This document shows, piece by piece, positions 8,183-42,154 of a stretch of 64,000 nt of DNA. The position numbers were made by a program, and so were the translations under genes. This DNA comes from a virus. Under the pieces are notes generated by a model, which saw only the letters and a list, made by a program, of their open reading frames with translations, searched no databases and had not been told where the DNA came from. The first letter of the stretch is position 1, and each line of letters begins with the position of its first letter. The stretch covers positions 18,992 to 82,991 of the IMG/VR virus record IMGVR_UViG_3300031576_000024; one strand, given 5' to 3'.

Positions 8183-8443
8183 GTGTGGGAATTTTCGGCT
8201 GAAGAAATCCAGGCGTGGGTAGCTGCTAGTAATGTTGTTACCGCGCCTGTTCTCATTAAGGGTATAACATACCGCTGTGATAGCTGTAAGCGGTTCATGT
8301 CGGCCCTTGAAATGAGAGTAGAGTACAGCACGTTCTACTCCCATTTGACAAAAGAGTGTCTGACTAAGTTCGCTAACAAACACATGAAGAACTTAGACTT
8401 ATCTAAAGCACCGCAACAAATTCAAGTAACAGGAGACGTTTAA
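8183..8443 (+). CDS. Hypothetical protein
   Basis: 86-aa ORF coupled to the next gene by TAATG. Confidence 0.5.
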   Translation: MWEFSAEEIQAWVAASNVVTAPVLIKGITYRCDSCKRFMSALEMRVEYSTFYSHLTKECLTKFANKHMKNLDLSKAPQQIQVTGDV

Positions 8444-10038
8444 TGTCTAAATTAGGTCGATTCGCGGAAACTATTTTTGTTCGTACATACGCCGCAACGC
8501 ATGACGAAACTTGGGATGGTTGCGCAAGACGGGTAGCTGATTACGTAGCAGGCGACGATTACAAACATTTGGCAGATGACTTTTACAAGGCTATCTCTGA
8601 GCGTAAGTTCATGCCTGGAGGGCGATATCTAGCCCAAGCTGGTAAGGATATCCCCCAGCTAACCAATTGTTTCCTTTTGAGCGCAGAGGATTCCAGAGAA
8701 GGGTGGGCTCAACTGCTTAGGAAGCACATGATGGCATTATCTACCGGAGGCGGGGTCGGCACATGGTACGGAGACGTAAGACCGTCTGGACAGCCGATTA
8801 AGCGGTTTGGCGGGGTATCCAGTGGCCCTCTCGCCCTCATGTTCATGGTAAACGAGGTTGCACGTCACGTACTCTCGGGCGGGAAGCGTCGTAGCGCCTT
8901 ATGGGCTGGACTACCTTGGAACCACGGCGATATCGAAAAGTTCATTGTATCTAAGAACTGGTCTACAGCTATTCGGTCAATGAAGGAAAGTGACTTTAAC
9001 TTCCCGGCTACGTTGGACATGACAAACATCAGCGTGGCTCTAAATGATGAATTCTTCCAGAAGGTGAACAAAGATGATAAGGTATGGGACATCTACTATC
9101 GGGTCTGCAAAAACATGTGCAAAACAGGAGAACCGGGCTTTAGCATTGACACAGGAGTTAACGCTAAAGATGTTCTTCGGAATCCTTGTACGGAAGTTGT
9201 GTCGGCTACTGATTCTGACTGCTGTAATCTTGGTTCTATCAATCTAGCGAGGGTCAATGATATTGACGAACTAAAGAAGCTTACAAGACTTGCTGTAAAG
9301 TTTCTGTACCTGGGGACATTTCGTAGCTGGATGCCGGACGAATCGTTTGCTAAGATCCGCGAGAGGGATCGCCGGATCGGCCTGGGTATCATGGGTCTGC
9401 ACGAGTGGTGCATAAGACATGGAGAAAGATATGAGCCTAACGGCGAACTCGGCAAGTGGCTTGCTGCTTGGGCGAATATTAGCGACGATGAGGCCGTTAA
9501 ATTCAGTAAGGGAAAGGGAGCAAAGCCCGTTGCAGTTAGAGCAATCGCCCCAACGGGCACTATCGGAATTATAGCAGAAACAACGACAGGAATAGAACCT
9601 GTATTTTGCGTAGCCTATAAGAGACGCTGGCTTGGCACTGACGGACAGTGGGCCTCAGAATACGTTGTAGATCCTACAGTGAAGCGCCTACTAGATGAGG
9701 GTATCATTCAAGATCCCAATGACATTGAGGATTCAATCAAGCTAGCTCGGCATGTTGAACGTCGCATTCGGATGCAAGCCTTCGTTCAATCCTTCGTGGA
9801 TCAGGGTATCTCCAGTACGATTAACCTTCCTGAATACGGAGAGGCTGGTAATAACAATGTCAAGCAATTTGCTGAAACCCTTTTGGAATATTTGCCGAAG
9901 CTTAGAGGAATCACTGTTTATCCTGATGGTGCCCGCCCTGGTCAACCTATTACTAGCGTAAAGTGGGAGACAGCTATTAAGCACGCTAAAGTCGAAGAAC
10001 CAGAAGACAAGTGCTCCCAAGGCGCGTGCGGCATCTGA
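8443..10038 (+). CDS. nrdJ: Ribonucleotide reductase, probably class II (adenosylcobalamin-dependent)
   Basis: PGGRYL, TNCF, GEPG, NPCTE, CNLGSINL, IAPTGT, DQGISSTINLP, C-terminal CSQGACGI. No beta subunit nearby, so the class assignment is inferred. Confidence 0.88.
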   Translation: MSKLGRFAETIFVRTYAATHDETWDGCARRVADYVAGDDYKHLADDFYKAISERKFMPGGRYLAQAGKDIPQLTNCFLLSAEDSREGWAQLLRKHMMALSTGGGVGTWYGDVRPSGQPIKRFGGVSSGPLALMFMVNEVARHVLSGGKRRSALWAGLPWNHGDIEKFIVSKNWSTAIRSMKESDFNFPATLDMTNISVALNDEFFQKVNKDDKVWDIYYRVCKNMCKTGEPGFSIDTGVNAKDVLRNPCTEVVSATDSDCCNLGSINLARVNDIDELKKLTRLAVKFLYLGTFRSWMPDESFAKIRERDRRIGLGIMGLHEWCIRHGERYEPNGELGKWLAAWANISDDEAVKFSKGKGAKPVAVRAIAPTGTIGIIAETTTGIEPVFCVAYKRRWLGTDGQWASEYVVDPTVKRLLDEGIIQDPNDIEDSIKLARHVERRIRMQAFVQSFVDQGISSTINLPEYGEAGNNNVKQFAETLLEYLPKLRGITVYPDGARPGQPITSVKWETAIKHAKVEEPEDKCSQGACGI

Positions 10039-10118
10039 GATAAACGTCTGCATAGAACATGAGTGGCATAGTTATATGGGTGAACGTTGGTGTAGTAAGT
10101 GTAACAAAGGATGATAAC

Positions 10119-10364
10119 ATGAATAGAATCAAAAGATGGCTTCAATTGTACAGGCTGTATCGCTTAACTCGTATGCACACTTTAGACTTGTACGAGGAAA
10201 AGCTACGGATAGAAGATAGACTGCTTGAGGTACAAATCATTATTCAAGGAAGATCGACTATCTATGATGCCCCGATCGAAGTTAAAGAAGCAGCACTGTG
10301 GCGTGACCACGATAACCACGATCTACCTCCGGTAGATTCATTTCAGACAGTGGGAAAGATATGA
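10119..10364 (+). CDS. Hypothetical protein
   Basis: ATG (MNRIKRW) preceded by AAGGA; ATGA overlap with mazG. Confidence 0.5.
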   Translation: MNRIKRWLQLYRLYRLTRMHTLDLYEEKLRIEDRLLEVQIIIQGRSTIYDAPIEVKEAALWRDHDNHDLPPVDSFQTVGKI

Positions 10365-10747
10365 AGAAAGAACATGACGGAATGTACTCAACCCTAGCAC
10401 CTGTTGAATCTAAAAAGCGTGAACCTAGTTTGCTAGATACGTGGTTGGCTAATACCGATAAAACCGCAGTTTATCCTGATTCCTTTAACAAGGAACTCAC
10501 TGGTGCTGTATATCTCACCCTGGGGTTGAATGGAGAGGCCGGCGAGGTAGCCGATGAAATAAAGAAGATCATACGCAATGATAATGGTATTATTACACCC
10601 GAGAGGAAGAAGAAGCTGTACCTTGAGATGGGCGACGTGATGTGGTACTGGCTCCGGCTGACCAAAGAGCTTGATCTAGATATCGAAGATATCATGGCAG
10701 AGAACCTGAAGAAACTGAGTCAGAGGTATGAACATGAAGTCAAGTAA
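10361..10747 (+). CDS. mazG: MazG-like nucleotide pyrophosphohydrolase
   Basis: LGLNGEAGEVADEIKK...EMGDVMWY...NLKKLSQRY. Confidence 0.9.
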   Translation: MKKEHDGMYSTLAPVESKKREPSLLDTWLANTDKTAVYPDSFNKELTGAVYLTLGLNGEAGEVADEIKKIIRNDNGIITPERKKKLYLEMGDVMWYWLRLTKELDLDIEDIMAENLKKLSQRYEHEVK

Positions 10748-10967
10748 TTTATTCTGGGGTATTTTTAATCTGTTTCTAGGTGCGCTTATAGCTTCAACTA
10801 TATTATGGCACAGCGGCTACTGGCACAGGAAAGTAGTGGAGAATTGGAAGGAACAAGGATATGAGTGCTTTAGAGTCTACAAAGAACATGAAGAGGAACA
10901 AGGATATGAGTGCTTTAGAGTCTACAAAGAACGTGAAGCTGGTATCCGTTACGAAATCGCATGTTGA
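10728..10967 (+). CDS. Small membrane protein overlapping the thyX 5' end
   Basis: Hydrophobic N-terminal helix; contains the 45-bp tandem duplication. Confidence 0.45.
   Translation: MNMKSSNLFWGIFNLFLGALIASTILWHSGYWHRKVVENWKEQGYECFRVYKEHEEEQGYECFRVYKEREAGIRYEIAC
10849..10938. repeat. 45-bp tandem duplication (44/45 identical)
   Basis: AGGAACAAGGATATGAGTGCTTTAGAGTCTACAAAGAAC(A/G)TGAAG at 10849-10893 and 10894-10938. Confidence 0.95.
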
Positions 10968-11583
10968 TGGTATCCCGACAGCGGAAGGTCTGATTTGCTA
11001 TGTTGCTCGTGTTAGCAACCCTGCTAACCAGATGAACGAGCAATCGGCTCCTAAGCTTCTAAAGTATCTTATAAAGAACAAACACTGGAGTCCGTTCGAG
11101 TTAGTCCATATGACGGTAGAGATCAAGACGAGTAGAGCTATCGCTCAGCAGATCCTTCGGCATCGTAGTTTTAGCTTCCAAGAGTTTAGCCAGCGGTACT
11201 CTACAGCTACGTCAATGGTATACTACAGAGCTAGACGGCAGGATGTTAAGAACCGTCAGAACAGTATTGATGATCTATCTGTTGAAGTGAAAGAACAGTT
11301 TGAGGAACTTCAACTTGACGTTAACCAGCTTTGTGCAAACCATTACTCAAGAGCTTTAGAGTTGGGCATTGCCAAAGAACAGGCTCGGTTTCTCCTCCCT
11401 TTAAGTACAGCAACCACACTTTATATGTCCGGGTCCATGCGATCTTGGATTCATTATATGCAACTGCGTATGGACCCTTCAACGCAGTTAGAGCACAGAG
11501 AAATTGCAAACGAAATATACAGCATCTTTGCTCATAACTTTCCTAACATAGCGGCGGCACTACATGACAACCAAAGAGACTAA
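10861..11583 (+). CDS. thyX: Flavin-dependent thymidylate synthase (start uncertain: 10861, 10906 or 10933)
   Basis: HWSPFE, SRAIAQQILRHRSFSFQEFSQRY, EQARFLLP, TQLEHREIA. Confidence 0.96.
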   Translation: MSALESTKNMKRNKDMSALESTKNVKLVSVTKSHVDGIPTAEGLICYVARVSNPANQMNEQSAPKLLKYLIKNKHWSPFELVHMTVEIKTSRAIAQQILRHRSFSFQEFSQRYSTATSMVYYRARRQDVKNRQNSIDDLSVEVKEQFEELQLDVNQLCANHYSRALELGIAKEQARFLLPLSTATTLYMSGSMRSWIHYMQLRMDPSTQLEHREIANEIYSIFAHNFPNIAAALHDNQRD

Positions 11584-11992
11584 CCCTAAAGATGCTGTAG
11601 GAACAGGTAAATATCCGTCTTCTACTGTTCCTGCTCCTGTTATTGGTGAAGTAGGCTTAGCCATGTTGGAAGGGGCACGTAAATATGGTCGTCATAATTA
11701 CCGGGTAGCAGGGGTGCGAGCTAGCGTGTACTACGATGCCTGTAAAAGACACCTTGATGACTTTTGGGAAGGCGTTGACATTGATAAAGACTCCGGCCTA
11801 CCGCATGTTGTTAAAGCTATAGCTTGTTTAGTTGTATTGCGTGATTCACAGATGCAAGGCAATTGGGTTGACGACAGACCGCCGCCAAGTCCTAAAGACT
11901 GGCAAGATGTGCTTAATAAAAAAGCTAAAGAAATAATTGCAAAGTACCCTAACTCTAAAGATGCATACTTGGCATCGGATACAAAACTATGA
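11564..11992 (+). CDS. dATP/dGTP diphosphohydrolase domain protein (DUF5664-like)
   Basis: NPKDAVG...AMLEGARKYGRHNYR...YYDACKRHL...D.DSGLPHVVKAIAC. Confidence 0.82.
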   Translation: MTTKETNPKDAVGTGKYPSSTVPAPVIGEVGLAMLEGARKYGRHNYRVAGVRASVYYDACKRHLDDFWEGVDIDKDSGLPHVVKAIACLVVLRDSQMQGNWVDDRPPPSPKDWQDVLNKKAKEIIAKYPNSKDAYLASDTKL

Positions 11993-12378
11993 AGAAGCAG
12001 AAATACTTTGATGGATTCGGCAACCTAGAGGATGTTATTAGAGACTTTGAGATCGACACCGATCTTAATGACCGTAACATTCTATTTGCTTCTTATGCTA
12101 CAGAGGCTTATGAAGGAAGTGCGTTCGTCCTATTTAAGAGAGACAAGAAGCTCTATGAAGTCAATGGTTCACACTGCTCGTGCTACGGCCTAGAGGGTCA
12201 GTGGGAGCCGGAAGAGACTTCATGGGATGCGCTGGCAATGCGAATAAAGGTTGATGCTACCTTAAAGGGTAGTAACATGAATAAAATAAGAGTAAATATT
12301 TATGGTGTTGCTCCTGAAGGCGTACCGTATCTAGTTGAGCTAATCAAGAAGAACGTGAAGGTAAAAGATGCCGTTTGA
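11989..12378 (+). CDS. Conserved phage hypothetical protein
   Basis: FASY..YEGSAFVLF...LYEVNGSHCSCYGLEGQWEPEET resembles a recurrent phage family. Confidence 0.6.
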   Translation: MKKQKYFDGFGNLEDVIRDFEIDTDLNDRNILFASYATEAYEGSAFVLFKRDKKLYEVNGSHCSCYGLEGQWEPEETSWDALAMRIKVDATLKGSNMNKIRVNIYGVAPEGVPYLVELIKKNVKVKDAV

Positions 12379-15300
12379 TAGAACGGGTAAATGGACGGAG
12401 CCTGGATCGGAAACCGAATCCGAGTTCGTAAATGCTATTACGGCTCAGTCAAGTGACGGGCAGGAAGTTGCACTTACTCCCGACGTGGTGGCTAAGATCG
12501 AGGCTGCCATCCGTTCCAACGTTGGTGACAACAAAAACGTTGGCCGGCTCAACACACTTTCCTACTCCACCTTAGCTAGTGTAGTTAATAGTCCTGGGCA
12601 TGTAAGCGTTGTCATCCCTATCTACGGCGCTCTCAATCTAGTTAAGAAGGCCATTGAGTCTGTATTCAAACATACCTATTGGCCCTTTGAGCTTATCCTA
12701 GTTGACGACTGTTCTCCTGATCCTGCTGTCCGTGACTACCTTAAGACGCTGGAAGGTCAGAACAAGTCTGACAAGTGCATAGGATTGAAGGTTATCTGCA
12801 ACAAGAAGAACAAGGGCTTCGCTGCCACCTGTAACATCGGCATGAACGTCGGCACGGGTAAGTATTTCTGCGTTCTCAATTCGGACGTTCTAGTTACTCC
12901 CTACTGGTTAACCAAAATGGTTACTGCCGTAGAGGCTGATAAGTCACATGTCATTGTTAATCCGGTAACCAATAATACGGCCCTGATTAACGTGCAGATG
13001 GAACCTGGTAGATCGTATCTGGATATGAACCGTGCGCTCGAACGTAAATCACCTAAGAACTATCCTGAGATTATGCCTACCGGCTTCTGCTTGTTCTTCA
13101 AGCGTAGTCTCTTAGAAAGGATAGGAGGGTTCGATGAAGCCTACGTTTCCTACGGGGAGGATACGCACTTCTGGTTCCAATCTCTTAAGCTCACCTCTGA
13201 TAGCGGTGAGTACCTTGGCAACAAAGCTGTCATGGCTGACGATTGTTACATCTTCCATGAACGTAGCAGCAGCTTCAATCAAGTAAGTTCAGATGAACAT
13301 ATGGGCCTTCGGCGTTCTGGCTCGGAGCGTTTCCACAAGCTAAATCCTTCTTATGCAGACTGGAAGAATGGCTACAATGTTAACAAGGTCATGTCAGAGA
13401 TCCGCTCCAAGACACCCGACTCACTGTTTGACCACGATTACAAGTACAATTGCGTTTGGGTTGTAAAATCAGCCGACTTCTGCGGTGGTATGAAGTACAT
13501 AGCAGACATTGTAAATGAGCTAATTGAGCAGAATGTCAACGCTAAGGTTTGTGTTATCAAGAACACTCCTGACGCTCCTGAGAATGTCCTCAATGATCTA
13601 CATACTGCGCCTATCTTCTTTAAGGATGCAGAAGACTTTGTAACTAACTTCTCCACGCGCTGCTTTACCAACGGTGTCGTAATTGCCGCTGTATCTGAAC
13701 TTGTGTCGCCCGTAGGCATCCTTTGTCAGCGCATACAAAGTCTTACTCCTATTCATCACATTCAGTCATACGATCCTGAGCTTACTGCCATTCCTGAGTT
13801 AGCCGCAGAGCAAGCTCAAGCATATGGAAAGCTACGTTATTCCATATCGTCAAGTAACTGGATCACTGAACATCTACAGAAGGAAGGCGTTAAAAACATC
13901 ATCTTCACTACTCAACCGGGCGTTGATACGGACCTATTCCATCATGGCGACCGAAGCCGTGGCGACGATAGGTTTACCGTGATGATAGCTTTGAACGCTC
14001 AATATCCTTTCAAGGGTGCTGAGCGCGGCATTGAGGTTGCCAAAGAGATTATCAAGCGGGACAAAAATATCCGCGTCCTAGGATTGGGTATGGACTTCAT
14101 TCCCGATTGTCCGGCCATTGTAGGACTCGGTAAATTGTCACAAGGACGCTTGGCGCACCTCCTACGCACTGAGGTAGATGTGTTTATAGATCCAAGCTAC
14201 ATTCACAGTTACGGCATGCCTAGTTTGGAAGCTCTTGCTTGTGGCGTTGAAGTTGTCTGCTGGAATAACCGAGGCATTGGTGAGTACGCGAGCAATAAGT
14301 TTAACGGCGTTCATATCTTCATGCAGAACGTGATACCCGAAGAACTAGCCGATAGGTGTCTAAAGATTAAGGAGAATAAGTCCGCAGTCACTCTAGTTCC
14401 CTTATCAAGAGAAGACAGTGTTAATAGCTTCACTAATCACTTTGAAATAAACTTAGGTCTGGTACCATTCAAGAAACGGATTACTGTAGTCACCCCTCAC
14501 GCACGCAAACACGGTGGCCCGACTACGATCATTAATTTCGCTAACGTCTTGGGTTACTTGGGACACGATGCGCGCCTAGTATCAATCTATGACGATTTCA
14601 ACAATGAAGTAATAAGCTTCAAGCAAGTTCCGCTATTCATAGGCGTTGATTACATTAAAGAGTCTGACATGGTTGTTATCAACTCTGATAATCCGTTCAT
14701 TGAGCAGATTGTCAATCAGCCTTCACTTAAACATGCCAAGAAGGTACTTCTAAAGCTCAGCCACAATCCTCGCTTTAAGGCCATAGAAGAAGCTAGCTTG
14801 CGCATGCCCATATGGGATAAGATACTTTGTTCCACAGAGCATCTACGTGAGAAGTGTATCAATCCTATGCCTGATTGGCGTCACATTGCGTGGAGCCCCG
14901 ATAAGGTTCAAACTATCGGCTGGTATCATTACACGTTCCCTGTGTTCAACGCTCCCCCGGAGACGAGACAGTACGGGGTCATTGACAAGCAGATGCGTAT
15001 TGGGTATCTTATGCACGACCATCCCACAAAGGGGACGACGTTCGCCAATGCCATCGTCAAGGCTCTTAAGAACAAGTATGGCGCTAACGTAGACATCGTG
15101 ACCGTTGGTGAGGTAGCGCTTAAGTATAAGCCGCCGTGGATGACTTACGTGTTCAAACCTAACCGCCCTGAAATGGCACAGGTAATGAAGCAGTGCGATA
15201 TCTGGTTGGGAAGCTCCTTCAACGAAGGACTAGGACGTATGACACTGGAAGCTATGGCAGCGGGTTGCGCTATCGTAACTACCGACACTGGTGCAGAATT

Positions 15301-15502
15301 CCTTAAAGACCAAGAGAACTGTTTACTATACCCTCCCGGTGAGGCACAACAAGGCGGTGAAGCTGTAGATAAGCTACTATCAGATCCTAAGCTCTTCCAG
15401 AAACTAATCAATAACGGCTACCAAACAGCAGGTAAGGCAGCAGACCCGCACCAGTATGTACATACATTGAGGCAACTAGTACATGAACTATGCAAAACCT
15501 AG
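12368..15502 (+). CDS. Tri-domain glycosyltransferase: GT2 (GT-A) plus two GT4-like (GT-B) domains
   Basis: VSVVIPIY, LVDDCS, GFAATCN, LNSDV, GGFDE...YGED; then KG..RG...SYGMPSLEALACG; then HGGPTT...KGT...EGLGRMTLEAMAAGCAIV. Confidence 0.92.
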   Translation: MPFDRTGKWTEPGSETESEFVNAITAQSSDGQEVALTPDVVAKIEAAIRSNVGDNKNVGRLNTLSYSTLASVVNSPGHVSVVIPIYGALNLVKKAIESVFKHTYWPFELILVDDCSPDPAVRDYLKTLEGQNKSDKCIGLKVICNKKNKGFAATCNIGMNVGTGKYFCVLNSDVLVTPYWLTKMVTAVEADKSHVIVNPVTNNTALINVQMEPGRSYLDMNRALERKSPKNYPEIMPTGFCLFFKRSLLERIGGFDEAYVSYGEDTHFWFQSLKLTSDSGEYLGNKAVMADDCYIFHERSSSFNQVSSDEHMGLRRSGSERFHKLNPSYADWKNGYNVNKVMSEIRSKTPDSLFDHDYKYNCVWVVKSADFCGGMKYIADIVNELIEQNVNAKVCVIKNTPDAPENVLNDLHTAPIFFKDAEDFVTNFSTRCFTNGVVIAAVSELVSPVGILCQRIQSLTPIHHIQSYDPELTAIPELAAEQAQAYGKLRYSISSSNWITEHLQKEGVKNIIFTTQPGVDTDLFHHGDRSRGDDRFTVMIALNAQYPFKGAERGIEVAKEIIKRDKNIRVLGLGMDFIPDCPAIVGLGKLSQGRLAHLLRTEVDVFIDPSYIHSYGMPSLEALACGVEVVCWNNRGIGEYASNKFNGVHIFMQNVIPEELADRCLKIKENKSAVTLVPLSREDSVNSFTNHFEINLGLVPFKKRITVVTPHARKHGGPTTIINFANVLGYLGHDARLVSIYDDFNNEVISFKQVPLFIGVDYIKESDMVVINSDNPFIEQIVNQPSLKHAKKVLLKLSHNPRFKAIEEASLRMPIWDKILCSTEHLREKCINPMPDWRHIAWSPDKVQTIGWYHYTFPVFNAPPETRQYGVIDKQMRIGYLMHDHPTKGTTFANAIVKALKNKYGANVDIVTVGEVALKYKPPWMTYVFKPNRPEMAQVMKQCDIWLGSSFNEGLGRMTLEAMAAGCAIVTTDTGAEFLKDQENCLLYPPGEAQQGGEAVDKLLSDPKLFQKLINNGYQTAGKAADPHQYVHTLRQLVHELCKT

Positions 15503-15845
15503 AACTAAAGCTTTTAGCGTCACTATTAAAGACTGCGAGGTTGAGACGTTTCGGTGCGGCGGGCCGGGCGGACAGAATGTCAACAAAGTCGAAAGTGGTG
15601 TCCGCGTGCGCCATGTTCCTTCTAGTGCTGTGTCTGAAAGTCGGGAGTTTAGAGAGCAACATCGGAACAAGGTTAATGCCTTTATCAAAATGGCTAATTC
15701 GCCAGAGTTTCAAAAGTGGATACGAGTCGAAGCTGCTAGACGAGCGGGACAGCCATCAGCAGAAGAAATAGTGGAGAAGATGATGGGCTCTAAGAACATT
15801 CGAGTACAGTATAAGGTGGAGGGTAAATGGACGACAGTAGAATAA
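15483..15845 (+). CDS. Stand-alone class I release-factor/peptidyl-tRNA hydrolase (GGQ) domain protein
   Basis: ETFRCGGPGGQNVNKVESGVRVRHVPS...REQHRNK; lacks stop-codon-recognition domains. Confidence 0.9.
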   Translation: MNYAKPRTKAFSVTIKDCEVETFRCGGPGGQNVNKVESGVRVRHVPSSAVSESREFREQHRNKVNAFIKMANSPEFQKWIRVEAARRAGQPSAEEIVEKMMGSKNIRVQYKVEGKWTTVE

Positions 15846-16567
15846 GGCGCGGGGTTGGAATTTGCCACTATAACCGGCAGAAGTACCTTAACGAGATTAT
15901 CTTCGCTGTACAGAATACAGTACCGAAAGGTACTCGCGTTGTGGTGTGCGACGACGGCTCCAACCCTCTAAACATTCTTGAAGATATTACACTGGTTCAA
16001 GGTAAGAATCTTGGTGTAGCAGCGAACAAGAACCGTGCCTTGTGGGCGCTTCAGGACTGTCACTACATTTGCATCCTAGAAGACGACCTTAAGCCTATCT
16101 CTAAGGGTTGGTTTGAAACCTATGAGAAGGCTGCCAACCTGTCCAACATTCACCACTTCTGCCGTGTTCAAGACAAGCACGTCCAAGAAACGTCTCCTGA
16201 GTTTGCTCAGTATATGAAGACGCATGGATTCACGCCGATTTACGGTCCCACTCCGCGTGGAGACTTAACGTTTATAACACACAAGGTTGTGGAGCGCATT
16301 GGTGCTTTCAACCCTCTCTTCATAGGCGCTGGTCACGCGCACGGGGAGTGGAGCCATAGAGTATGGAAAGCGGGGCTGATCGGCCACAACAATAAGTGGG
16401 TTGACATCATGGAAGCCCGTAATATGTTTGAACAACTTGGCGATACCGAAGGCGGACGCTGGGTTCTAGATCCTAAGGATTTACGTAAGCAACTTATCAG
16501 AAACGAGAAAGTGTACAAGGATCTTCAGAAGACAGCCTACAGCCACCTTCCTTTGAGCCTGGAGTAA
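15827..16567 (+). CDS. Glycosyltransferase family 2
   Basis: GICHYNR, VVVCDDGS, NLGVAANKNRAL, ILEDD, IGAFN. Confidence 0.88.
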   Translation: MDDSRIRRGVGICHYNRQKYLNEIIFAVQNTVPKGTRVVVCDDGSNPLNILEDITLVQGKNLGVAANKNRALWALQDCHYICILEDDLKPISKGWFETYEKAANLSNIHHFCRVQDKHVQETSPEFAQYMKTHGFTPIYGPTPRGDLTFITHKVVERIGAFNPLFIGAGHAHGEWSHRVWKAGLIGHNNKWVDIMEARNMFEQLGDTEGGRWVLDPKDLRKQLIRNEKVYKDLQKTAYSHLPLSLE

Positions 16568-16569
16568 CA

Positions 16570-17313
16570 ATGGAACAGTATACAACAAAGTGCGGTGTGG
16601 AGCTTCCTCAAGTAGACCCTGAGAAAAACTACGACATTCTGCTATACAAGATAGGGAATGATTGGGAAGAGTTCCTTCGCTGCGATACTATGCACAAAGT
16701 CACTGACCCTGCTGACGAAGACTTCCGTAAGAAGATCGCACAGGCAGCTTGCACAATGTATACCACTCGCGGTATTGGTATTGCCGCTAATCAATTGGGC
16801 TTCAAAGAGCATTGGTGTATCGTAGATACACAATGGCCTCAAACTGGTATAAAGGTTCCGCGCGTAATCCTCAATCCCAATACAAGAGACAGCGTACTAG
16901 TCGAGACTCAGAAGGCCAGCCACGAAGGCTGTCTAAGTGTGCCTATGGGGTTCAAGGGAACTGTGGCTAGACATTCGGCAGTAGACCTTTACTATACTGA
17001 CCTTATGGGCAATGACGTATCGTGGCAAGCATTCGACCTTGATGCTGCCGCCGTCTTACACGAGCTAGACCACCTAAGAGGGCGATTGTTCATTGACAAC
17101 ATTTCCAATCTTCGCTTAAGCTTCCTAGAAGGTAAGCTTCGGAAGGTACAGAAGATGGTCAGGAATCGCATTAAGAACAACAACCGCAGCGTAATTGCCC
17201 AGGTTAAACGCATGAACATCATCTACTCATGGAGCGCACAGAAGAGACTTGATCTCGCTGCTAAGGAAGCAGAGAAGCTTGTGGTTGAACAACCTGAGGT
17301 AGTAGATGAATAA
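16570..17313 (+). CDS. def: Peptide deformylase with basic C-terminal extension
   Basis: All three PDF motifs: GIGIAANQ, EGCLS, HELDH. Confidence 0.95.
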   Translation: MEQYTTKCGVELPQVDPEKNYDILLYKIGNDWEEFLRCDTMHKVTDPADEDFRKKIAQAACTMYTTRGIGIAANQLGFKEHWCIVDTQWPQTGIKVPRVILNPNTRDSVLVETQKASHEGCLSVPMGFKGTVARHSAVDLYYTDLMGNDVSWQAFDLDAAAVLHELDHLRGRLFIDNISNLRLSFLEGKLRKVQKMVRNRIKNNNRSVIAQVKRMNIIYSWSAQKRLDLAAKEAEKLVVEQPEVVDE

Positions 17314-17575
17314 ATACCTTATGAGCGAGGGTAGCGTACAACTCGGCATGGTCTTTATAGAGAGACACGGCGGGTTTGTTACTGGATCTCATAACGCACC
17401 GCTAATCGGGTACTTCTGTAAAGTATACGATGAAGATTCCGATGCTTGGAATGCACAGGGACACGGACTTACATATGATCTAGCAATGGTTTCTTTGTAC
17501 CTTCTGCGTACCAAAGGTGAGCTACCTAAGCCACCTGAATACTTCTCTAAGACTAACTTCTATCTGGAAAACTAA
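17306..17575 (+). CDS. Hypothetical protein
   Basis: 89-aa ORF overlapping or coupled to both neighbours. Confidence 0.5.
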   Translation: MNKYLMSEGSVQLGMVFIERHGGFVTGSHNAPLIGYFCKVYDEDSDAWNAQGHGLTYDLAMVSLYLLRTKGELPKPPEYFSKTNFYLEN

Positions 17576-18480
17576 TGAAGATACTACTTGCTAAACATCT
17601 ATGGGACTACGAAGGTACGCCTATCGCTACCTACGCTACATCCCTGTCCAGAGCTTTCACACAGGCTGGACACGAAGTCACAGAGATAGATAAGCAGATC
17701 ATCCTAGATGATAGCGTTTACAGGGCACACGATCTTCTGTTCGATATTGACTGCGGTAAGGATATGAAGGGGGATCAGAAGTTTCACCTTTGCCATCCTA
17801 AGATCCAGTCCCTAATTAAGACTGTCTTCTTTGCAATAGACTCGCACGGAAATGCTGATATGCACCAACGACTGTCACGCTCCGCAGACTATGTATTCTT
17901 TGCTATATGGGATAAGCGCGACCTGTTCGCCGACCATCCTTCAGCTACTTGGACTCCAAGTTTCACGGATCTTGCTTACTTCGACGGTGAAACGTTTACC
18001 TCGGAGAAGACAAAGGACTTCTGCTTCCTAGGCTCCCTTGGCGGGCTTGATAGAGCAGATCCTATGGTGAAAGCGTGCAAAGACAATAACTGGACTTTCG
18101 ACGTGGATGAAGTAGGCCGTAAGGGAAAGCACACATGGCCCAGGACCGCTGAGCGCATGGGTGCTTGCAGGTTCGGGTTCAACCACGGACAGAAGCACGA
18201 CGGACCTAACCTGCGTACTATAGAGACGATGGCTATGAAGTTGCCGCTTATCTGCGACCAAGACACGCGAGACGGCAAAGGTTTCCTCTTCGAGCCTTGG
18301 CAGCACTACATTCCCTACAAGGCGTATTCGTATGAGGGACTGCTGGAGCGCATGCAGTGGTGCATGACAAACCCCGATAAGGCTGCTAAGATTGCCAAGC
18401 AAGCATATGATGAAGTGTGCCTAAACCACCTGGCCTCGCACCGCGTACAGACTATACTGGAGGTAGTATGCAAATCCTGA
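17575..18480 (+). CDS. Glycosyltransferase, GT-B fold (CgeB-like)
   Basis: DFCFLGS, GFNH...DGPNLRTIETMAMKLPLICD, HYIPY, KIAKQAYDEVCLNHLASHRVQTIL. Confidence 0.8.
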   Translation: MKILLAKHLWDYEGTPIATYATSLSRAFTQAGHEVTEIDKQIILDDSVYRAHDLLFDIDCGKDMKGDQKFHLCHPKIQSLIKTVFFAIDSHGNADMHQRLSRSADYVFFAIWDKRDLFADHPSATWTPSFTDLAYFDGETFTSEKTKDFCFLGSLGGLDRADPMVKACKDNNWTFDVDEVGRKGKHTWPRTAERMGACRFGFNHGQKHDGPNLRTIETMAMKLPLICDQDTRDGKGFLFEPWQHYIPYKAYSYEGLLERMQWCMTNPDKAAKIAKQAYDEVCLNHLASHRVQTILEVVCKS

Positions 18481-19220
18481 TGTTCACACCTGCCCACAAG
18501 GATGAGTTCATAGCCAAGGCCAAGACCATGAAGAAGCGTTACCCTGAAGTAACTATTGTCTATGATCTAGAAGACGGTGTGCCCGCGACAGAGAAGAAGC
18601 GGGCCTTTGAGAACGTGAAGAAGCACGCCCGTACAAAGGATTGGGTTCGCATTGACGACAACATGACATATGAGTTATACGACCTACCTACCGTACAAGC
18701 CATAGTCATTCCTAAAGTCACGCCTTACGTACTTGACCGTTACGTCGATATGGACGGTCGAAACAGCTTTGGCTGTGATAGAGTAATCGCTCTCATTGAA
18801 ACTGCTGCTGGCGTTGACGCTGCTAGTTACATTGCCGAGAAGGCTGGCGGTGTCATATTTGGGCAATATGATTTCATATTATCAATGAATTCCGAACTAC
18901 ACACTGACTACGCTAGATCACGGATCTTGAATGCATGCAAGGCTGCTGGCATTCCTGTGTATGACAGCCCTGACTACTCCCTGGACTTAAACACGATCAT
19001 GCATAACGCTAGGCAGGCGTACTGCCTAGGCTTTGACGGCATGGCAGTTCTACATCCTGACCATATCAAGATCGTGAAGGAAAACTTTAGAGCGCCTTAC
19101 AACCAGAGAGTATGGGCGAAGGGTATCTTGAAGAACGCTGGAGACGGACTGACTGTCTTCCAGAACACAATCATCGGCCCGCCCATAGTTAAGCGTGCCA
19201 AGCAAATACTACAGAAATGA
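18468..19220 (+). CDS. citE: CitE/HpcH-HpaI aldolase-citrate lyase family protein
   Basis: YDLEDGVP, WVRI, IPKV, LIETAAGV, FGQYDF, GFDG..LHPDHI; GGAGG RBS before ATG 18468. Confidence 0.82.
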   Translation: MQILMFTPAHKDEFIAKAKTMKKRYPEVTIVYDLEDGVPATEKKRAFENVKKHARTKDWVRIDDNMTYELYDLPTVQAIVIPKVTPYVLDRYVDMDGRNSFGCDRVIALIETAAGVDAASYIAEKAGGVIFGQYDFILSMNSELHTDYARSRILNACKAAGIPVYDSPDYSLDLNTIMHNARQAYCLGFDGMAVLHPDHIKIVKENFRAPYNQRVWAKGILKNAGDGLTVFQNTIIGPPIVKRAKQILQK

Positions 19221-19280
19221 GAGTGGTTGCTATCCTCATAGCAGTTATCTTGGTTCTCACTATTCCGTGAAAGGGCATTC

Positions 19281-20123
19281 ATGTATAATGTAGGCATCAT
19301 AGGATTAGGCTTCGTAGGTGGTGCAACGTCACGCGCGTTCGCACAATACGCAAACGTTAGGGTTTACGACAAGTACAAGAACATCGGCACTATCAAAGAG
19401 GTAGCTGAGCAGGCTGTTGTGTTCGTATGCGTGCCTACGCCCATGCGCGCGGACGGCTCCTGTGACACCTCAATCGTTGAGAGCGTTGTAGCCGACCTTA
19501 GTACGTTCCCTAACGCTGATAGAGAAGTGGTAATCAAGTCTACCTGCCCGCCTGCATTCTTCTCTAAGCTACAGGCTACATATCCGCTTGCCGGGACTAT
19601 CATCTTTAACCCTGAGTTCCTAACAGAACGCACAGCGGACCTAGACTTCATTCAGAGTACGCGGTTCATCTTTGGAGTCGAGCTACCTAATGCTGCTGCA
19701 AAGTTTATCGTATTGAAGCTACATGAGGAGCGGTTCCCTGGCACACGTCTTGCAGTGATGCATTGGGAAGAAGCCGCTATGGTTAAGTACGGCTGCAACG
19801 TGTTCTTCACAGTCAAGCTAAGCTTCTTCAATGAGTTAGCTCGTGTCTGTGAGAAGCTAAATGGTTTCACGAGTTTTCCCACTGTTATCAATGAAATCCT
19901 ACAGGACGGGCGTATTGGGAGGTCACACTTTCAGGTACCCGGCCACGATGGCGATAAGGGATGGGGTGGAGTCTGCTTCCCTAAAGATAACAGAGCATTC
20001 TCTATATTTGCAAAAGAGTTGTGTGTGAACAGCCATATGGCAGATGCCGCTTGGCAAGTTAACCAAGAGGTACGATCAGATCGTAATTGGGAGAAGGAAA
20101 AGGGCAGAGCAGTAAGTGAATAG
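19281..20123 (+). CDS. ugd: UDP-glucose/GDP-mannose 6-dehydrogenase (short form lacking the C-terminal domain)
   Basis: GLGFVG, VCVPTP, IKST, NPEFL, KYGCN, GWGGVCFPKD with catalytic Cys. Confidence 0.92.
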   Translation: MYNVGIIGLGFVGGATSRAFAQYANVRVYDKYKNIGTIKEVAEQAVVFVCVPTPMRADGSCDTSIVESVVADLSTFPNADREVVIKSTCPPAFFSKLQATYPLAGTIIFNPEFLTERTADLDFIQSTRFIFGVELPNAAAKFIVLKLHEERFPGTRLAVMHWEEAAMVKYGCNVFFTVKLSFFNELARVCEKLNGFTSFPTVINEILQDGRIGRSHFQVPGHDGDKGWGGVCFPKDNRAFSIFAKELCVNSHMADAAWQVNQEVRSDRNWEKEKGRAVSE

Positions 20124-20281
20124 TAAATACAAATGCTACAGATGTCGAAAGTACATTAAGCCTAAGCGTGTTCCACATGCTGTGACGTGCTTTGACAAGA
20201 ATCTTCCTAGATTTATACCACAAAAAGGCAGAACATACTGTGAGAAATGCTGGCCTGTAATACTTAGAATTTGGAAACAAA

Positions 20282-21013
20282 ATGAACAACGTAACACCCG
20301 TAGTATTAGTTAAGAACGATGCCTTCTGGCTCCCATATGCGTTAGAGTCTATCTCCGGTCACTTTGAACATATGGTCATCTACGATGTGGGAAGTACTGA
20401 CAATACAAGAGATGTTATAGATTGGTTTGTTTCCAAAGAATTATACACCCACTTCATAGTAAGAAAGCTTCCGCACTGTCCGCCTGAAGTACAGCTCTGT
20501 TTCCGCAACTCAATGATTGCTGAAGCCGGAACAGGAACATATCTCATCCTTGACGGCGATGAAGTCTACAACAGAGAAGACCTAGAGAAGATTGACAAAA
20601 TCGGCGATATCTTACTAGAACATCATGGTGAAAACAGTCGTGTGCGCTACACAACGTTCCGTCGGGTAGAAGTGAGTCCCGACCTGTTGCAGCGCTATTC
20701 GGAAGAAAGAACCCATCACAGGCTATATCATCGGTCAGCGATATGGAACGGAACGCACCCGGGGGAAGTACCCTTCTTTGAGCAGAACAGTAAGTCCGAA
20801 TTGGACTTTACTTCAGATATGCGAGTTCTGCATTTGCACAATACGGTACGCTCGCCCAAAGAGGACGAAGCGTTAAGTCGTATTAAACGAAAAAGCCAGC
20901 GCTCCTATCACCCAGGAACACTGGCTAAGTTTAACGTATTAGAGGAATTTCCTTTGCTTAAGCAAAGGTTGCCTTTTCCCGTATGCCCGGCCCTGGAGGC
21001 GTTATGGGGATAG
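20282..21013 (+). CDS. Glycosyltransferase family 2
   Basis: VVLVKND, YDVGSTDNT, RN, LILDGDE (DxD), RLY...HP. Confidence 0.82.
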   Translation: MNNVTPVVLVKNDAFWLPYALESISGHFEHMVIYDVGSTDNTRDVIDWFVSKELYTHFIVRKLPHCPPEVQLCFRNSMIAEAGTGTYLILDGDEVYNREDLEKIDKIGDILLEHHGENSRVRYTTFRRVEVSPDLLQRYSEERTHHRLYHRSAIWNGTHPGEVPFFEQNSKSELDFTSDMRVLHLHNTVRSPKEDEALSRIKRKSQRSYHPGTLAKFNVLEEFPLLKQRLPFPVCPALEALWG

Positions 21014-35638: not shown

Positions 35639-35711
35639 TGGTAGCGGCGGCGGGAGTTGCGCCCGCGGAGGCTGGCTTATGAGGCCGGCTTGAATGCTCA
35701 TTCTCACCGCA
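35639..35711 (-). tRNA. tRNA with CAT anticodon (initiator Met-like, atypical)
   Basis: Minus strand reads TGCGGTG...CGCCGCT-A-CCA acceptor, anticodon loop CTCATAA, T-stem GCGGG/CCCGC, encoded CCA end. Confidence 0.8.
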
Positions 35712-40942: not shown

Positions 40943-42154
40943 TTAGTACGTTGGGAGTGTTAGGTTCGTGATTTTAGCACTCTGGTTAAGATAGCGCCCG
41001 ACTGTTTCCTTATATGCTTTCATAAGGACAGTAAAGGCATCCTGCCCAGGTATCCAGGTCATGTTAACCCGTTCGTCAATTGATAGCGGGCGAATTACGC
41101 CTCTTTCAATCGCATCTAGGTTAAGGAAGAACACTTGATCCGGTAGTGCTGCCCAGGTTACAAGCCAAGGACGACCCTCGAAAGTAGTCAATTCTTGACG
41201 TGCGCCAAGTTCAAGCGTCATGTCATTGAAGCGCCGGAACGGTAGGGCAATTTCAGTATAGCGGTCGTACTGATCGTGGTTTGAAATCATAGCGAACCCG
41301 CTTAGGCTCTCTACGGCTGTTTCGATCATCAGACGCTTACGTAGTCTACGTAGCATGCTTTCGTCAAGCGCTGTTGATGCAGCATTGATTACTTGGCTTT
41401 GTAGAATCGGGAAGGTTGTTCTCGAAACGTTGTAGATTGATCCTGTTGCTGATACTAGAGCAGGAAGCCCTAGCATTGTTACGTCAACAGGCGGTGCTGT
41501 ACCACTTTGTTCGTTAGCAATGTAAACGCCGTCATTGTCTGACAGAGTTACTGCTGCGGACACAGTGATTGTGCTGTTTGCTACGCTTCTGCTCTGTACT
41601 TGAACCGGACCAGCTTGGGTAATACCCGTGCTGTTGTTCAAGAACACTACAACTTGTCCTGAGCGGAAAGTTCTAGCGTCGTCTACAGTGATTACTGTAG
41701 CTGCTACGTGAGCACCGTTAACGTTAGTTAGGCGGCCTGTTCCATCTGAACGAAGGAACGTAGTTTCAAAGTTTGCACCAGCGCGCTTTACGGCTTGGCT
41801 GATTGCGTCGGTAATACCGGCAGCGAATGCGTCTTCACCACCTCTGCGGCTAACAGCTTCGGCTAGTCCTGAGAAGGTTACTACGTGGTAGTATTTCTTA
41901 GGAGTTACACGAGCCTGCTTGACACGTTCATTACCTGCTGAGGGTAGAGTATTGTCTTCTGCCGCGCGCCATCCACCGCCGCTTTCATTTCCGTCAATTC
42001 TGACTGCGAAGAACGCACCTTCACCCGATGGGGTGAATCTGTTGTTTTCCTTCAGCCGTGAATAGACAGGAGCAGAAAGTTGCTGCATTTGGCCGATAAA
42101 ATCGACCACATAGCGACGTAGAAGTAAGTCACCTAATGTACTAACTGTTTCCAT
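40943..42154 (-). CDS. Major capsid protein
   Basis: 403 aa, downstream of a scaffold-like gene and followed by a terminator; C-terminal AKITNL typical of HK97-fold capsids; internal inserted beta domain. Confidence 0.8.
   Translation of the reverse strand: METVSTLGDLLLRRYVVDFIGQMQQLSAPVYSRLKENNRFTPSGEGAFFAVRIDGNESGGGWRAAEDNTLPSAGNERVKQARVTPKKYYHVVTFSGLAEAVSRRGGEDAFAAGITDAISQAVKRAGANFETTFLRSDGTGRLTNVNGAHVAATVITVDDARTFRSGQVVVFLNNSTGITQAGPVQVQSRSVANSTITVSAAVTLSDNDGVYIANEQSGTAPPVDVTMLGLPALVSATGSIYNVSRTTFPILQSQVINAASTALDESMLRRLRKRLMIETAVESLSGFAMISNHDQYDRYTEIALPFRRFNDMTLELGARQELTTFEGRPWLVTWAALPDQVFFLNLDAIERGVIRPLSIDERVNMTWIPGQDAFTVLMKAYKETVGRYLNQSAKITNLTLPTY

Follow-up and report, generated by a model that had tools for sequence, protein, structure and literature searches.

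A stand-alone GGQ-domain gene and a long-tailed peptide deformylase gene within a phage glycosyltransferase operon

The window analysed here, a stretch of 64,000 nucleotides (bases 18992-82991 of the 82,991-bp linear IMG/VR virus record IMGVR_UViG_3300031576_000024, estimated completeness 69%), contains a gene for a stand-alone GGQ-domain protein and a gene for a peptide deformylase among genes for glycosyltransferases (GTs). We consider it fairly probable that these are two separate accessory genes supporting translation, situated in variable junctions of a conserved four-gene GT operon. Judged by sequence, the GGQ gene adds one more member to a phage family already known, and the deformylase gene represents a known auxiliary gene in a long-tailed version. 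The initial annotation of the locus had combined both into a phage module that handles the two ends of nascent proteins, an interpretation that is weakly supported by the comparisons presented here.

The order GT fusion, GGQ gene (120 amino acids, aa), GT family 2 (GT2) gene and deformylase gene, as first annotated, is reproduced exactly in the open reading frame (ORF) list, and every gene listed with coordinates in this paragraph lies on the plus strand. The first core gene of the operon (12368-15502) encodes a 1044-aa fusion of one GT2 and two GT4 domains (PF00535, PF00534, PF13692) and is followed by the GGQ gene (15483-15845; PF00472, PHROG 3122), whose product is a stand-alone RF-1/GGQ domain of a tailless phage family. 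The second core gene, a GT2 gene of 246 aa (15827-16567; PF00535, PHROG 2456), separates the GGQ gene from the gene of the type-1B-like deformylase (16570-17313, 247 aa; PF01327). Downstream follow an 89-aa ORF (17306-17575), the third core GT gene (17575-18480; Glyco_trans_1_2 in Pfam), an HpcH/CitE-like and then a UDP-glucose-dehydrogenase-like gene (UGDH; both from Pfam), and the fourth core GT gene (20282-21013), with a weak GT2 match below the cut-off (E 0.0043). Neighbouring genes overlap by 20 nt (GT fusion and GGQ), 19 nt (GGQ and GT2), 8 nt (deformylase stop and 89-aa ORF) or 1 nt, or stand 2 nt apart (GT2 and deformylase). This layout is that of a single operon, and the GGQ and deformylase genes would be co-transcribed with the GT genes because they are located in it. 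Between 10000 and 22000 there is no excess of promoter-like matches (15 vs 16.5 +/- 4.1 in shuffled sequence) or of terminator-like matches (7 vs 9.0 +/- 3.0).

Relatives of the phage were found via its major capsid protein (40943-42154, minus strand; PHROG 14242), which matches 23 IMG/VR contigs at 71-83% identity, 22 of them searchable. Among these 22 records an RF-1 domain is present in one (G054), a deformylase in three (G053, G054, G067) and a GT2 gene in five (G053, G054, G062, G067, G070). Gene orders were established for the five with tblastn, using the window proteins, and with ORF lists. The window has the order GT fusion - GGQ - GT2 - deformylase - 89-aa ORF - GT - HpcH - UGDH - GT. 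In G054 the order is GT fusion - GGQ (132 aa) - 72-aa ORF - GT2 - 72-aa ORF - 191-aa ORF - deformylase (231 aa) - 123-aa ORF - GT - 113-aa ORF - GT. G053 possesses the deformylase (211 aa) and lacks the GGQ gene, its GT fusion ending at 1709 and its GT2 gene starting at 1706; after the deformylase come ORFs of 298 and 222 aa and the two remaining GT genes. The G067 contig ends inside GT2, which is followed by the deformylase and two GT genes. G062 and G070 contain neither accessory gene: the four GT genes are contiguous in G062, and in G070 they stand in the same order with gaps of 245-476 bp. The GT fusion shares 37-45% identity with its counterparts in G053, G054, G062 and G070, and the third and fourth core GTs share 45-52% and 42-53%, respectively, with those of all five relatives. 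The 89-aa ORF has no tblastn match in any of the five and no Pfam or PHROG match.

The conserved unit thus consists of the four GT genes, with variable cargo in the three junctions between them. The second junction holds a deformylase gene in four of the six genomes, and the first junction holds a GGQ gene in two of the five genomes where it is visible. Relatives with a deformylase are nearer to the window phage by capsid identity than those without (80-81% vs 71-73%). Conserved linkage in related phages, the criterion set at the outset for a two-gene module, gives a mixed picture. The proposal of a dedicated module agrees with G054, where both genes occupy the same slots; it does not agree with the different GGQ subtype found there, with the deformylase alone in G053 or with the absence of both genes from G062 and G070.

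The GGQ protein of G054 is alignable to that of the window at 32% identity over residues 12-71 only, although it matches the whole Pfam model (residues 6-116, 98.6 bits). Its C-terminus is release-factor-like and its best local matches are the C-terminal parts of bacterial RF1 and RF2. In the GGQ-domain tree described below it falls outside the clade of the window protein (type a), but a tree in which it joins that clade is not rejected by the approximately unbiased test (p 0.407); for this reason it is called a different subtype here, and neither an independent origin nor an independent acquisition of the gene is claimed. The deformylases of the lineage are likewise divergent (34-36% identity). 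A quick tree places the subfamily of the window enzyme in one clade (support 99), G054 and G067 in another (100) and G053 on a long branch; the join of these groups is unsupported, and no conclusion on a single or multiple origin is drawn from it. Two further peculiarities concern the junctions and the GT genes themselves. The 191-aa ORF in the GT2-deformylase interval of G054 (L181, 10682-11257, minus strand) resembles an HNH endonuclease with an AP2-like part, as recognised by eye only, which fits the operon junctions as sites of insertion. In G070 (L184, 13971-15139) the tblastn match of the GT fusion is split by ~1.17 kb, pointing to an insertion inside one of its domains or between them.

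Close homologs of the GGQ protein (76-90% identity) and of the deformylase (56-62%) were retrieved from the same sources, and in seven cases their longest contigs are of equal size (25,651, 10,384, 5,828, 1,417, 4,116, 6,958 and 2,856 bp). These matches, which are matches of size and not of sequence, suggest that the two genes reside together in seven relatives. The contig of 1,417 bp offers space for genes of 119 and 260 aa, but not for a 246-aa GT2 gene between them. Outside the lineage no such linkage is found: none of 59 IMG/VR loci with a GGQ homolog (tblastn, E<=1e-3) has a deformylase gene in the flanking sequence retrieved, which extends up to 6 kb. PF01327 occurs anywhere in 10 of 48 GGQ-bearing records searched as a whole; these 10 records are 84-456 kb long, and in them the distance between the two genes, taken from the coordinates, is at least ~54 kb. 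In GenBank, the lists of phage records with GGQ and with deformylase matches scarcely overlap by host name.

The GGQ protein is confirmed as an RF-1 domain protein. PF00472 (RF-1) covers residues 11-111 (E 1.5e-17, 64.1 bits vs a cut-off of 35), with the catalytic loop GGPGGQ at residues 26-31, and PHROG 3122 ("RF-1 domain peptide chain release factor") matches residues 6-117 on profile positions 20-128 of 136 (E 2.5e-26). In an alignment of 39 rows (A1), the glycines G27, G29 and G30 do not vary, and at least 90% of the rows have Q31. With tblastn the protein matches 268 GenBank phage records, all below 60% identity, 209 of which cover at least 80% of the query; 205 of the 268 come from Mycobacterium phages, and in most the existing annotation is RF-1 peptide chain release factor. 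A search of 5.8 billion proteins returned 88 matches, 14 of them with 115-120 aa and 72-90% identity. The profile built from the 39 homologs of A1, run without length limits against 1.84 billion representatives, retrieved 121 cluster representatives at E<=1e-30, and the best 150 are all full-length matches of 96-216 aa. The GGQ motif is kept in 138 of these 150 and replaced by GGS or GGT in 12. The nearest ESM Atlas clusters are RF-1-domain proteins, mainly viral (89-100%), and the ESM Atlas model of the window protein (predicted local distance difference test score 0.62) resembles RF2 over residues 4-98 with a template modelling score of 0.52. A metagenome scan with the protein reached bacterial RF1 and RF2 through one conserved pattern, with no close relative among the matches listed. 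The window protein thus reads as a further member of a large, catalogued and mostly viral family of short GGQ proteins; a literature search found no functional study of this tailless RF-1 family (PHROG 3122).

A quick tree was built from 68 GGQ domains and 128 columns, with PrfH-like proteins, RF1, RF2 and viral sequences and without ArfB. All 25 type-a rows, including the window protein and those of phages Alice and EniyanLRS, lie on one side of a branch with a Shimodaira-Hasegawa-like approximate likelihood ratio test (SH-aLRT) support of 99, and the other side holds PrfH-like proteins, RF1, RF2 and two further viral types. Of the phylogenetic check suggested at the outset, the separation from RF1, RF2 and PrfH is thereby obtained. 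A conserved neighbour of type-a GGQ genes was sought in ten loci, and no neighbour family recurs except in three copies of a single lineage. One of three viral contigs that are nearly identical (L005, 5971-6525, compared with L003 and L004) has a GGQ ORF that continues into the next ORF of 67 aa to give 184 aa, maybe a fusion, maybe a sequencing difference. The IMG/VR loci L010-L060 contain at least four further types of GGQ protein in viral contigs: full-length RF2-like proteins (329-382 aa), for the most part from very large records; PrfH-like proteins of ~200 aa; proteins of 170-250 aa ending in ...DHxTGxKWxYxDYVxGxW; and short proteins whose C-terminus is release-factor-like.

The GGQ protein of the window contains no domain for reading stop codons. 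RF-1 is the sole domain found by Pfam, and the position of the GGQ motif, beginning at residue 29, leaves no space for a codon-reading domain. NCBIfam scores are far below the respective cut-offs for RF2 (58/370), RF1 (55/400), PrfH (47.5/166.65) and ArfB (41.1/100), the last match being limited to residues 9-44. A search against solved structures gave 51 matches, with RF1 best (E 1.1e-10, residues 13-84) and RF2, PrfH (6.8e-7) and ICT1 (1.4e-4) also among them; ArfB is not among the 51. The window protein also retains the residues on either side of the GGQ loop that release factors conserve. The absence of the stop-codon-recognition domains and of the basic ArfB/YaeJ tail, both stated in the initial annotation, is confirmed: the last 30 residues have a net charge of 0, within a protein of +8 overall. 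Tails of this kind are typical of the family, as the last 30 residues of the 150 best representatives have a median net charge of -2 and reach +6 or more in just two. The C-terminus quoted earlier is four residues too short, the true end being ...EGKWTTVE.

Among known systems, the closest counterparts are the phage proteins of PHROG 3122 themselves. Alice gp197 and EniyanLRS gp129 match the window protein over the full length at 43-50% identity and are equally short, stand-alone and devoid of a basic tail. Their surroundings differ: in Alice the RF-1 gene is located between DNA polymerase and UvsX, and in EniyanLRS beside a tRNA array, whereas the gene of the window lies inside a GT operon in a record without tRNA genes. 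RF-1 genes at mycobacteriophage tRNA arrays are also reported in the available text of PMC5966550. The EniyanLRS gene (L152, 3777-4345) shares 4 nt with a 76-aa gene that is annotated "RNA binding protein" but matches nothing in Pfam, and the two are situated ~1.8 kb from the tRNA array. ArfB/YaeJ and ICT1 resemble the window protein as stand-alone GGQ domains of similar size that are expected to act without a stop codon, but ArfB/YaeJ has a linker and a basic C-terminal tail for the empty mRNA channel, both of which are missing here. PrfH, which accounts for the nearest cellular matches at 66-210 aa (P0052-P0087), also has a GGQ domain and a proposed role in conflict-related ribosome rescue. 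It differs in its length of ~200 aa, with ~110 residues before GGQ (residues 29-31 in the window protein), in its linkage to RtcB, which is not encoded in the window record, and in forming a separate clade (98 SH-aLRT) that excludes the window protein. Domain 3 of RF1 and RF2 is the best solved-structure match, yet RF1 and RF2 are ~360 aa long, with a PCRF domain and a PxT or SPF motif for codon reading, and this codon-recognition part has no equivalent in the window protein. Burroughs and Aravind (2019; PMC6514570) cover ArfB and PrfH; the word "phage" is absent from the main text as far as available, and the supplement may list phage versions.

The probable role of the GGQ protein is that of a peptidyl-tRNA hydrolase that acts in the peptidyl-transferase centre independently of a codon. 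Its substrates would be ribosomes or 50S subunits with a persistently empty A site, and release would free ribosomes, or split 50S subunits, that hold a stuck nascent chain during infection. As it has neither an mRNA-channel tail nor a decoding domain, selectivity would come from the long vacancy of the A site itself or from a partner. The initial annotation had left the mechanism of recruitment unexplained, correctly so, and this applies to the whole tailless GGQ family. An S4/Hsp15-like partner, an idea modelled on mitochondrial mtRF-R and MTRES1, was dropped: the EniyanLRS neighbour annotated "RNA binding protein" is without a Pfam match, and the window's record contains no S4 domain. Rescue of ribosomes jammed by host nucleases, as first proposed, is a plausible role, and such rescue by phages is in print for jumbo-phage PTH2 and tRNA genes, according to the available part of PMC7824862. 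The record, with no tRNA, tmRNA or RtcB gene, contains nothing that would connect the GGQ gene specifically with RNA damage. A link to RNA repair through RtcB was rejected, since PF01139 is not found in the 82,991-bp record, although at ~69% completeness the gene may lie in the missing part of the genome. The idea of a tRNA-array link was rejected as well, because ARAGORN predicts no tRNA or tmRNA gene in the window or in the whole record and Rfam gives no match at gathering scores.

The deformylase matches PF01327 over residues 42-181 (E 3.6e-29, 101.8 bits vs a cut-off of 22.8), so that the identities first assigned to both genes are upheld. Its motifs GIGIAANQ, EGCLS and HELDH are intact (pattern GxGxAAxQ, EGCLS, HExxH), and G68, G70, A72, Q75, E119-S123, H164, E165 and H168 are invariant in an alignment of 15 sequences (A2). 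NCBIfam cut-offs are not reached (NF001159, 104.2 vs 125; TIGR00079, 93.7 vs 103.95), and the enzyme is to be classed, from its sequence, as a divergent member of the family. Its best solved relatives are type-1B enzymes of gamma-proteobacteria, first among them Vibrio cholerae Def1 (3fwx, E 7.7e-18). Residues 40-196 align to residues 16-165 of 169 in 3fwx and, as the alignment reaches residue 165, the C-terminal helix is present in the window enzyme. According to the accessible text of PMC12690207, E. coli deformylase contacts the ribosome with L149, K150, R153, K157, K160 and R163. Through the gap-free block with 3fwx these correspond to L181, R182, F185, K189, K192 and K195, of which, in a mapping by sequence only, three are identical, two conservative and one lost (R153 to Phe).

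Compared with the type-1B enzymes of E. coli and V. cholerae (Def1), with which it has the three catalytic motifs and the C-terminal helix in common, the window deformylase is extended by ~20 aa at the N-terminus and by ~50 residues at the C-terminus (197-247, window 17160-17313), besides the Phe in place of R153. The long basic C-terminal extension noted initially holds as to the tail of ~50 residues, but the first ~25 residues of what was so described are the ordinary type-1B helix and the end is acidic: residues 171-220 carry a net charge of +10, the last 27 residues one of -3. Both extensions are shared by nine metagenomic homologs (P0240-P0248; 53-62% identity, 240-270 aa), with an N-terminal MEQYTTxCG... 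and a C-terminal basic helix ...NHN+..I..QVKKLN followed by an acidic LVVEQP-like end. Viral deformylases have been described, in the available text of PMC5591237, as lacking the ribosome-interacting C-terminal region. The enzymes of Vibrio phage Vp16 and cyanophage S-SSM7 are, like that of the window, phage-encoded with intact catalytic motifs, but by the same account lack this region, and the S-SSM7 structure (3uwa) aligns only to window residues 58-179. The window subfamily appears to be a variant in which the ribosome-binding helix is kept and lengthened. Tblastn detects deformylase matches in 150 GenBank phage records, mainly of Synechococcus and Vibrio phages, none of which covers 80% of the window query, and a scan of viral contigs yielded one weak locus only. 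The enzyme would dock at the exit tunnel by means of its retained and lengthened C-terminal helix and strip N-formyl groups from nascent chains, thereby adding to the capacity of the host during the burst of phage protein synthesis. Neither protein would depend on the other for its action.

Several observations weigh against this account of two separate accessory genes. Among the relatives, a GGQ gene is seen only where the deformylase gene occurs too (one of the two deformylase-bearing relatives with the junction visible, vs none of the two lacking the deformylase), and with the seven equal-size contig matches the linkage of the two genes in the lineage is tighter than expected by chance. ArfB loses ribosome binding without its 10 C-terminal residues, as given in the available text of PMC8012679, which leaves a tailless GGQ domain without a demonstrated route to the ribosome. 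The 12 of 150 representatives with GGS or GGT indicate that hydrolysis may not be the activity of the whole family. Both genes might instead be a functional pair kept together by selection, in which release at the C-terminus is combined with N-terminal processing of stalled chains and the deformylase tail possibly recruits the GGQ protein. The distance of ~0.7 kb within one tightly overlapping operon, the two slots of G054, the seven equal-size contig matches with the short 1,417-bp contig and the conserved acidic LVVEQP-like motif of the deformylase subfamily are in line with such a pair. It is nonetheless unlikely: G053 has the deformylase without the GGQ gene, G062 and G070 have neither, the other GGQ loci have no deformylase nearby, and the contig matches are of size. 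Close relatives would in any case be expected to be syntenic through shared ancestry. A stricter version, with both proteins on the same stalled ribosome and the acidic deformylase tail docking the tailless GGQ protein, is conceivable in view of the adjacency kept in the lineage and of two GGQ subtypes in one slot, but we hold it to be improbable.

Other readings concern the activity of the proteins. The GGQ protein might not be a hydrolase in vivo, but a binder of the A site or peptidyl-transferase centre through which termination or host translation is modulated or blocked, or else a decoy that engages a host factor recognising release-factor domain 3. Its lack of any element for recruitment or codon sensing and the missing Gln in the 12 representatives speak for this; the intact GGQ of the window protein and of the other 138, together with the conserved loop-flanking residues, speak against it, and a general blocker would strike phage translation too. 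We regard such a role as unlikely. That both genes belong to a glycosylation pathway, for example with the deformylase homolog removing the formyl group of an N-formylated sugar, is suggested solely by their position inside the GT operon and is very improbable. G062 and G070 have the four-gene GT core but neither accessory gene, a search of the 82,991-bp record for a formyltransferase domain (PF00551) gave no match, and the motifs of peptide deformylases are kept along with the predicted ribosome-binding helix; a sugar-deformylase role was rejected on the first two points. Two separate accessory genes in the junctions of the GT operon thus remain the preferred explanation.

Phages commonly encode short proteins with a GGQ domain alone, and these are routinely given the name of release factors. 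The locus provides a clean example of them: its GGQ motif is intact, its vicinity is free of tRNA and repair genes, relatives occur both with the gene and without it, and the slot is filled by another GGQ subtype in one of them. The apparent retention and lengthening of the ribosome-binding helix in some phage deformylases qualifies the published statement on viral enzymes cited above, as worded in the available text. Cooperation of the GGQ protein and the deformylase on the ribosome would, if true, constitute a new kind of phage translation module, which the present evidence makes unlikely; a ribosome-bound pair would offer this large phage GGQ family a means of recruitment, none being known so far.

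As to the source of the DNA, the window deformylase sequence is also recorded on a contig of 129,437 bp, from which a phage genome of ~120-130 kb is estimated. The stretch is present in just two sequencing runs, both of one cave-metagenome sample, maybe the source of the DNA itself and hence not independent support. Region 12368-21013 has no megablast match among GenBank phages. Upstream of the GT operon (8443-11992) lies a nucleotide-metabolism block with a class II ribonucleotide reductase, MazG, ThyX and a PF18909 protein (dATP/dGTP diphosphohydrolase N-terminal domain, E 1.9e-24); an adenylosuccinate-synthetase-like gene of the PurZ type is not found in the record. A tRNA-like gene of 73 nt (35639-35711, minus strand) is called by ARAGORN only at the relaxed threshold -ps80. 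Its anticodon is CAU and its CCA is encoded, positions 1:72 form a T-T mismatch and the D arm is reduced; its single Rfam match, Tymo_tRNA-like, is below gathering (E 0.022), and no BLAST match occurs among the 22 related records. If initiator-like, it would be relevant to formylation and to the deformylase.

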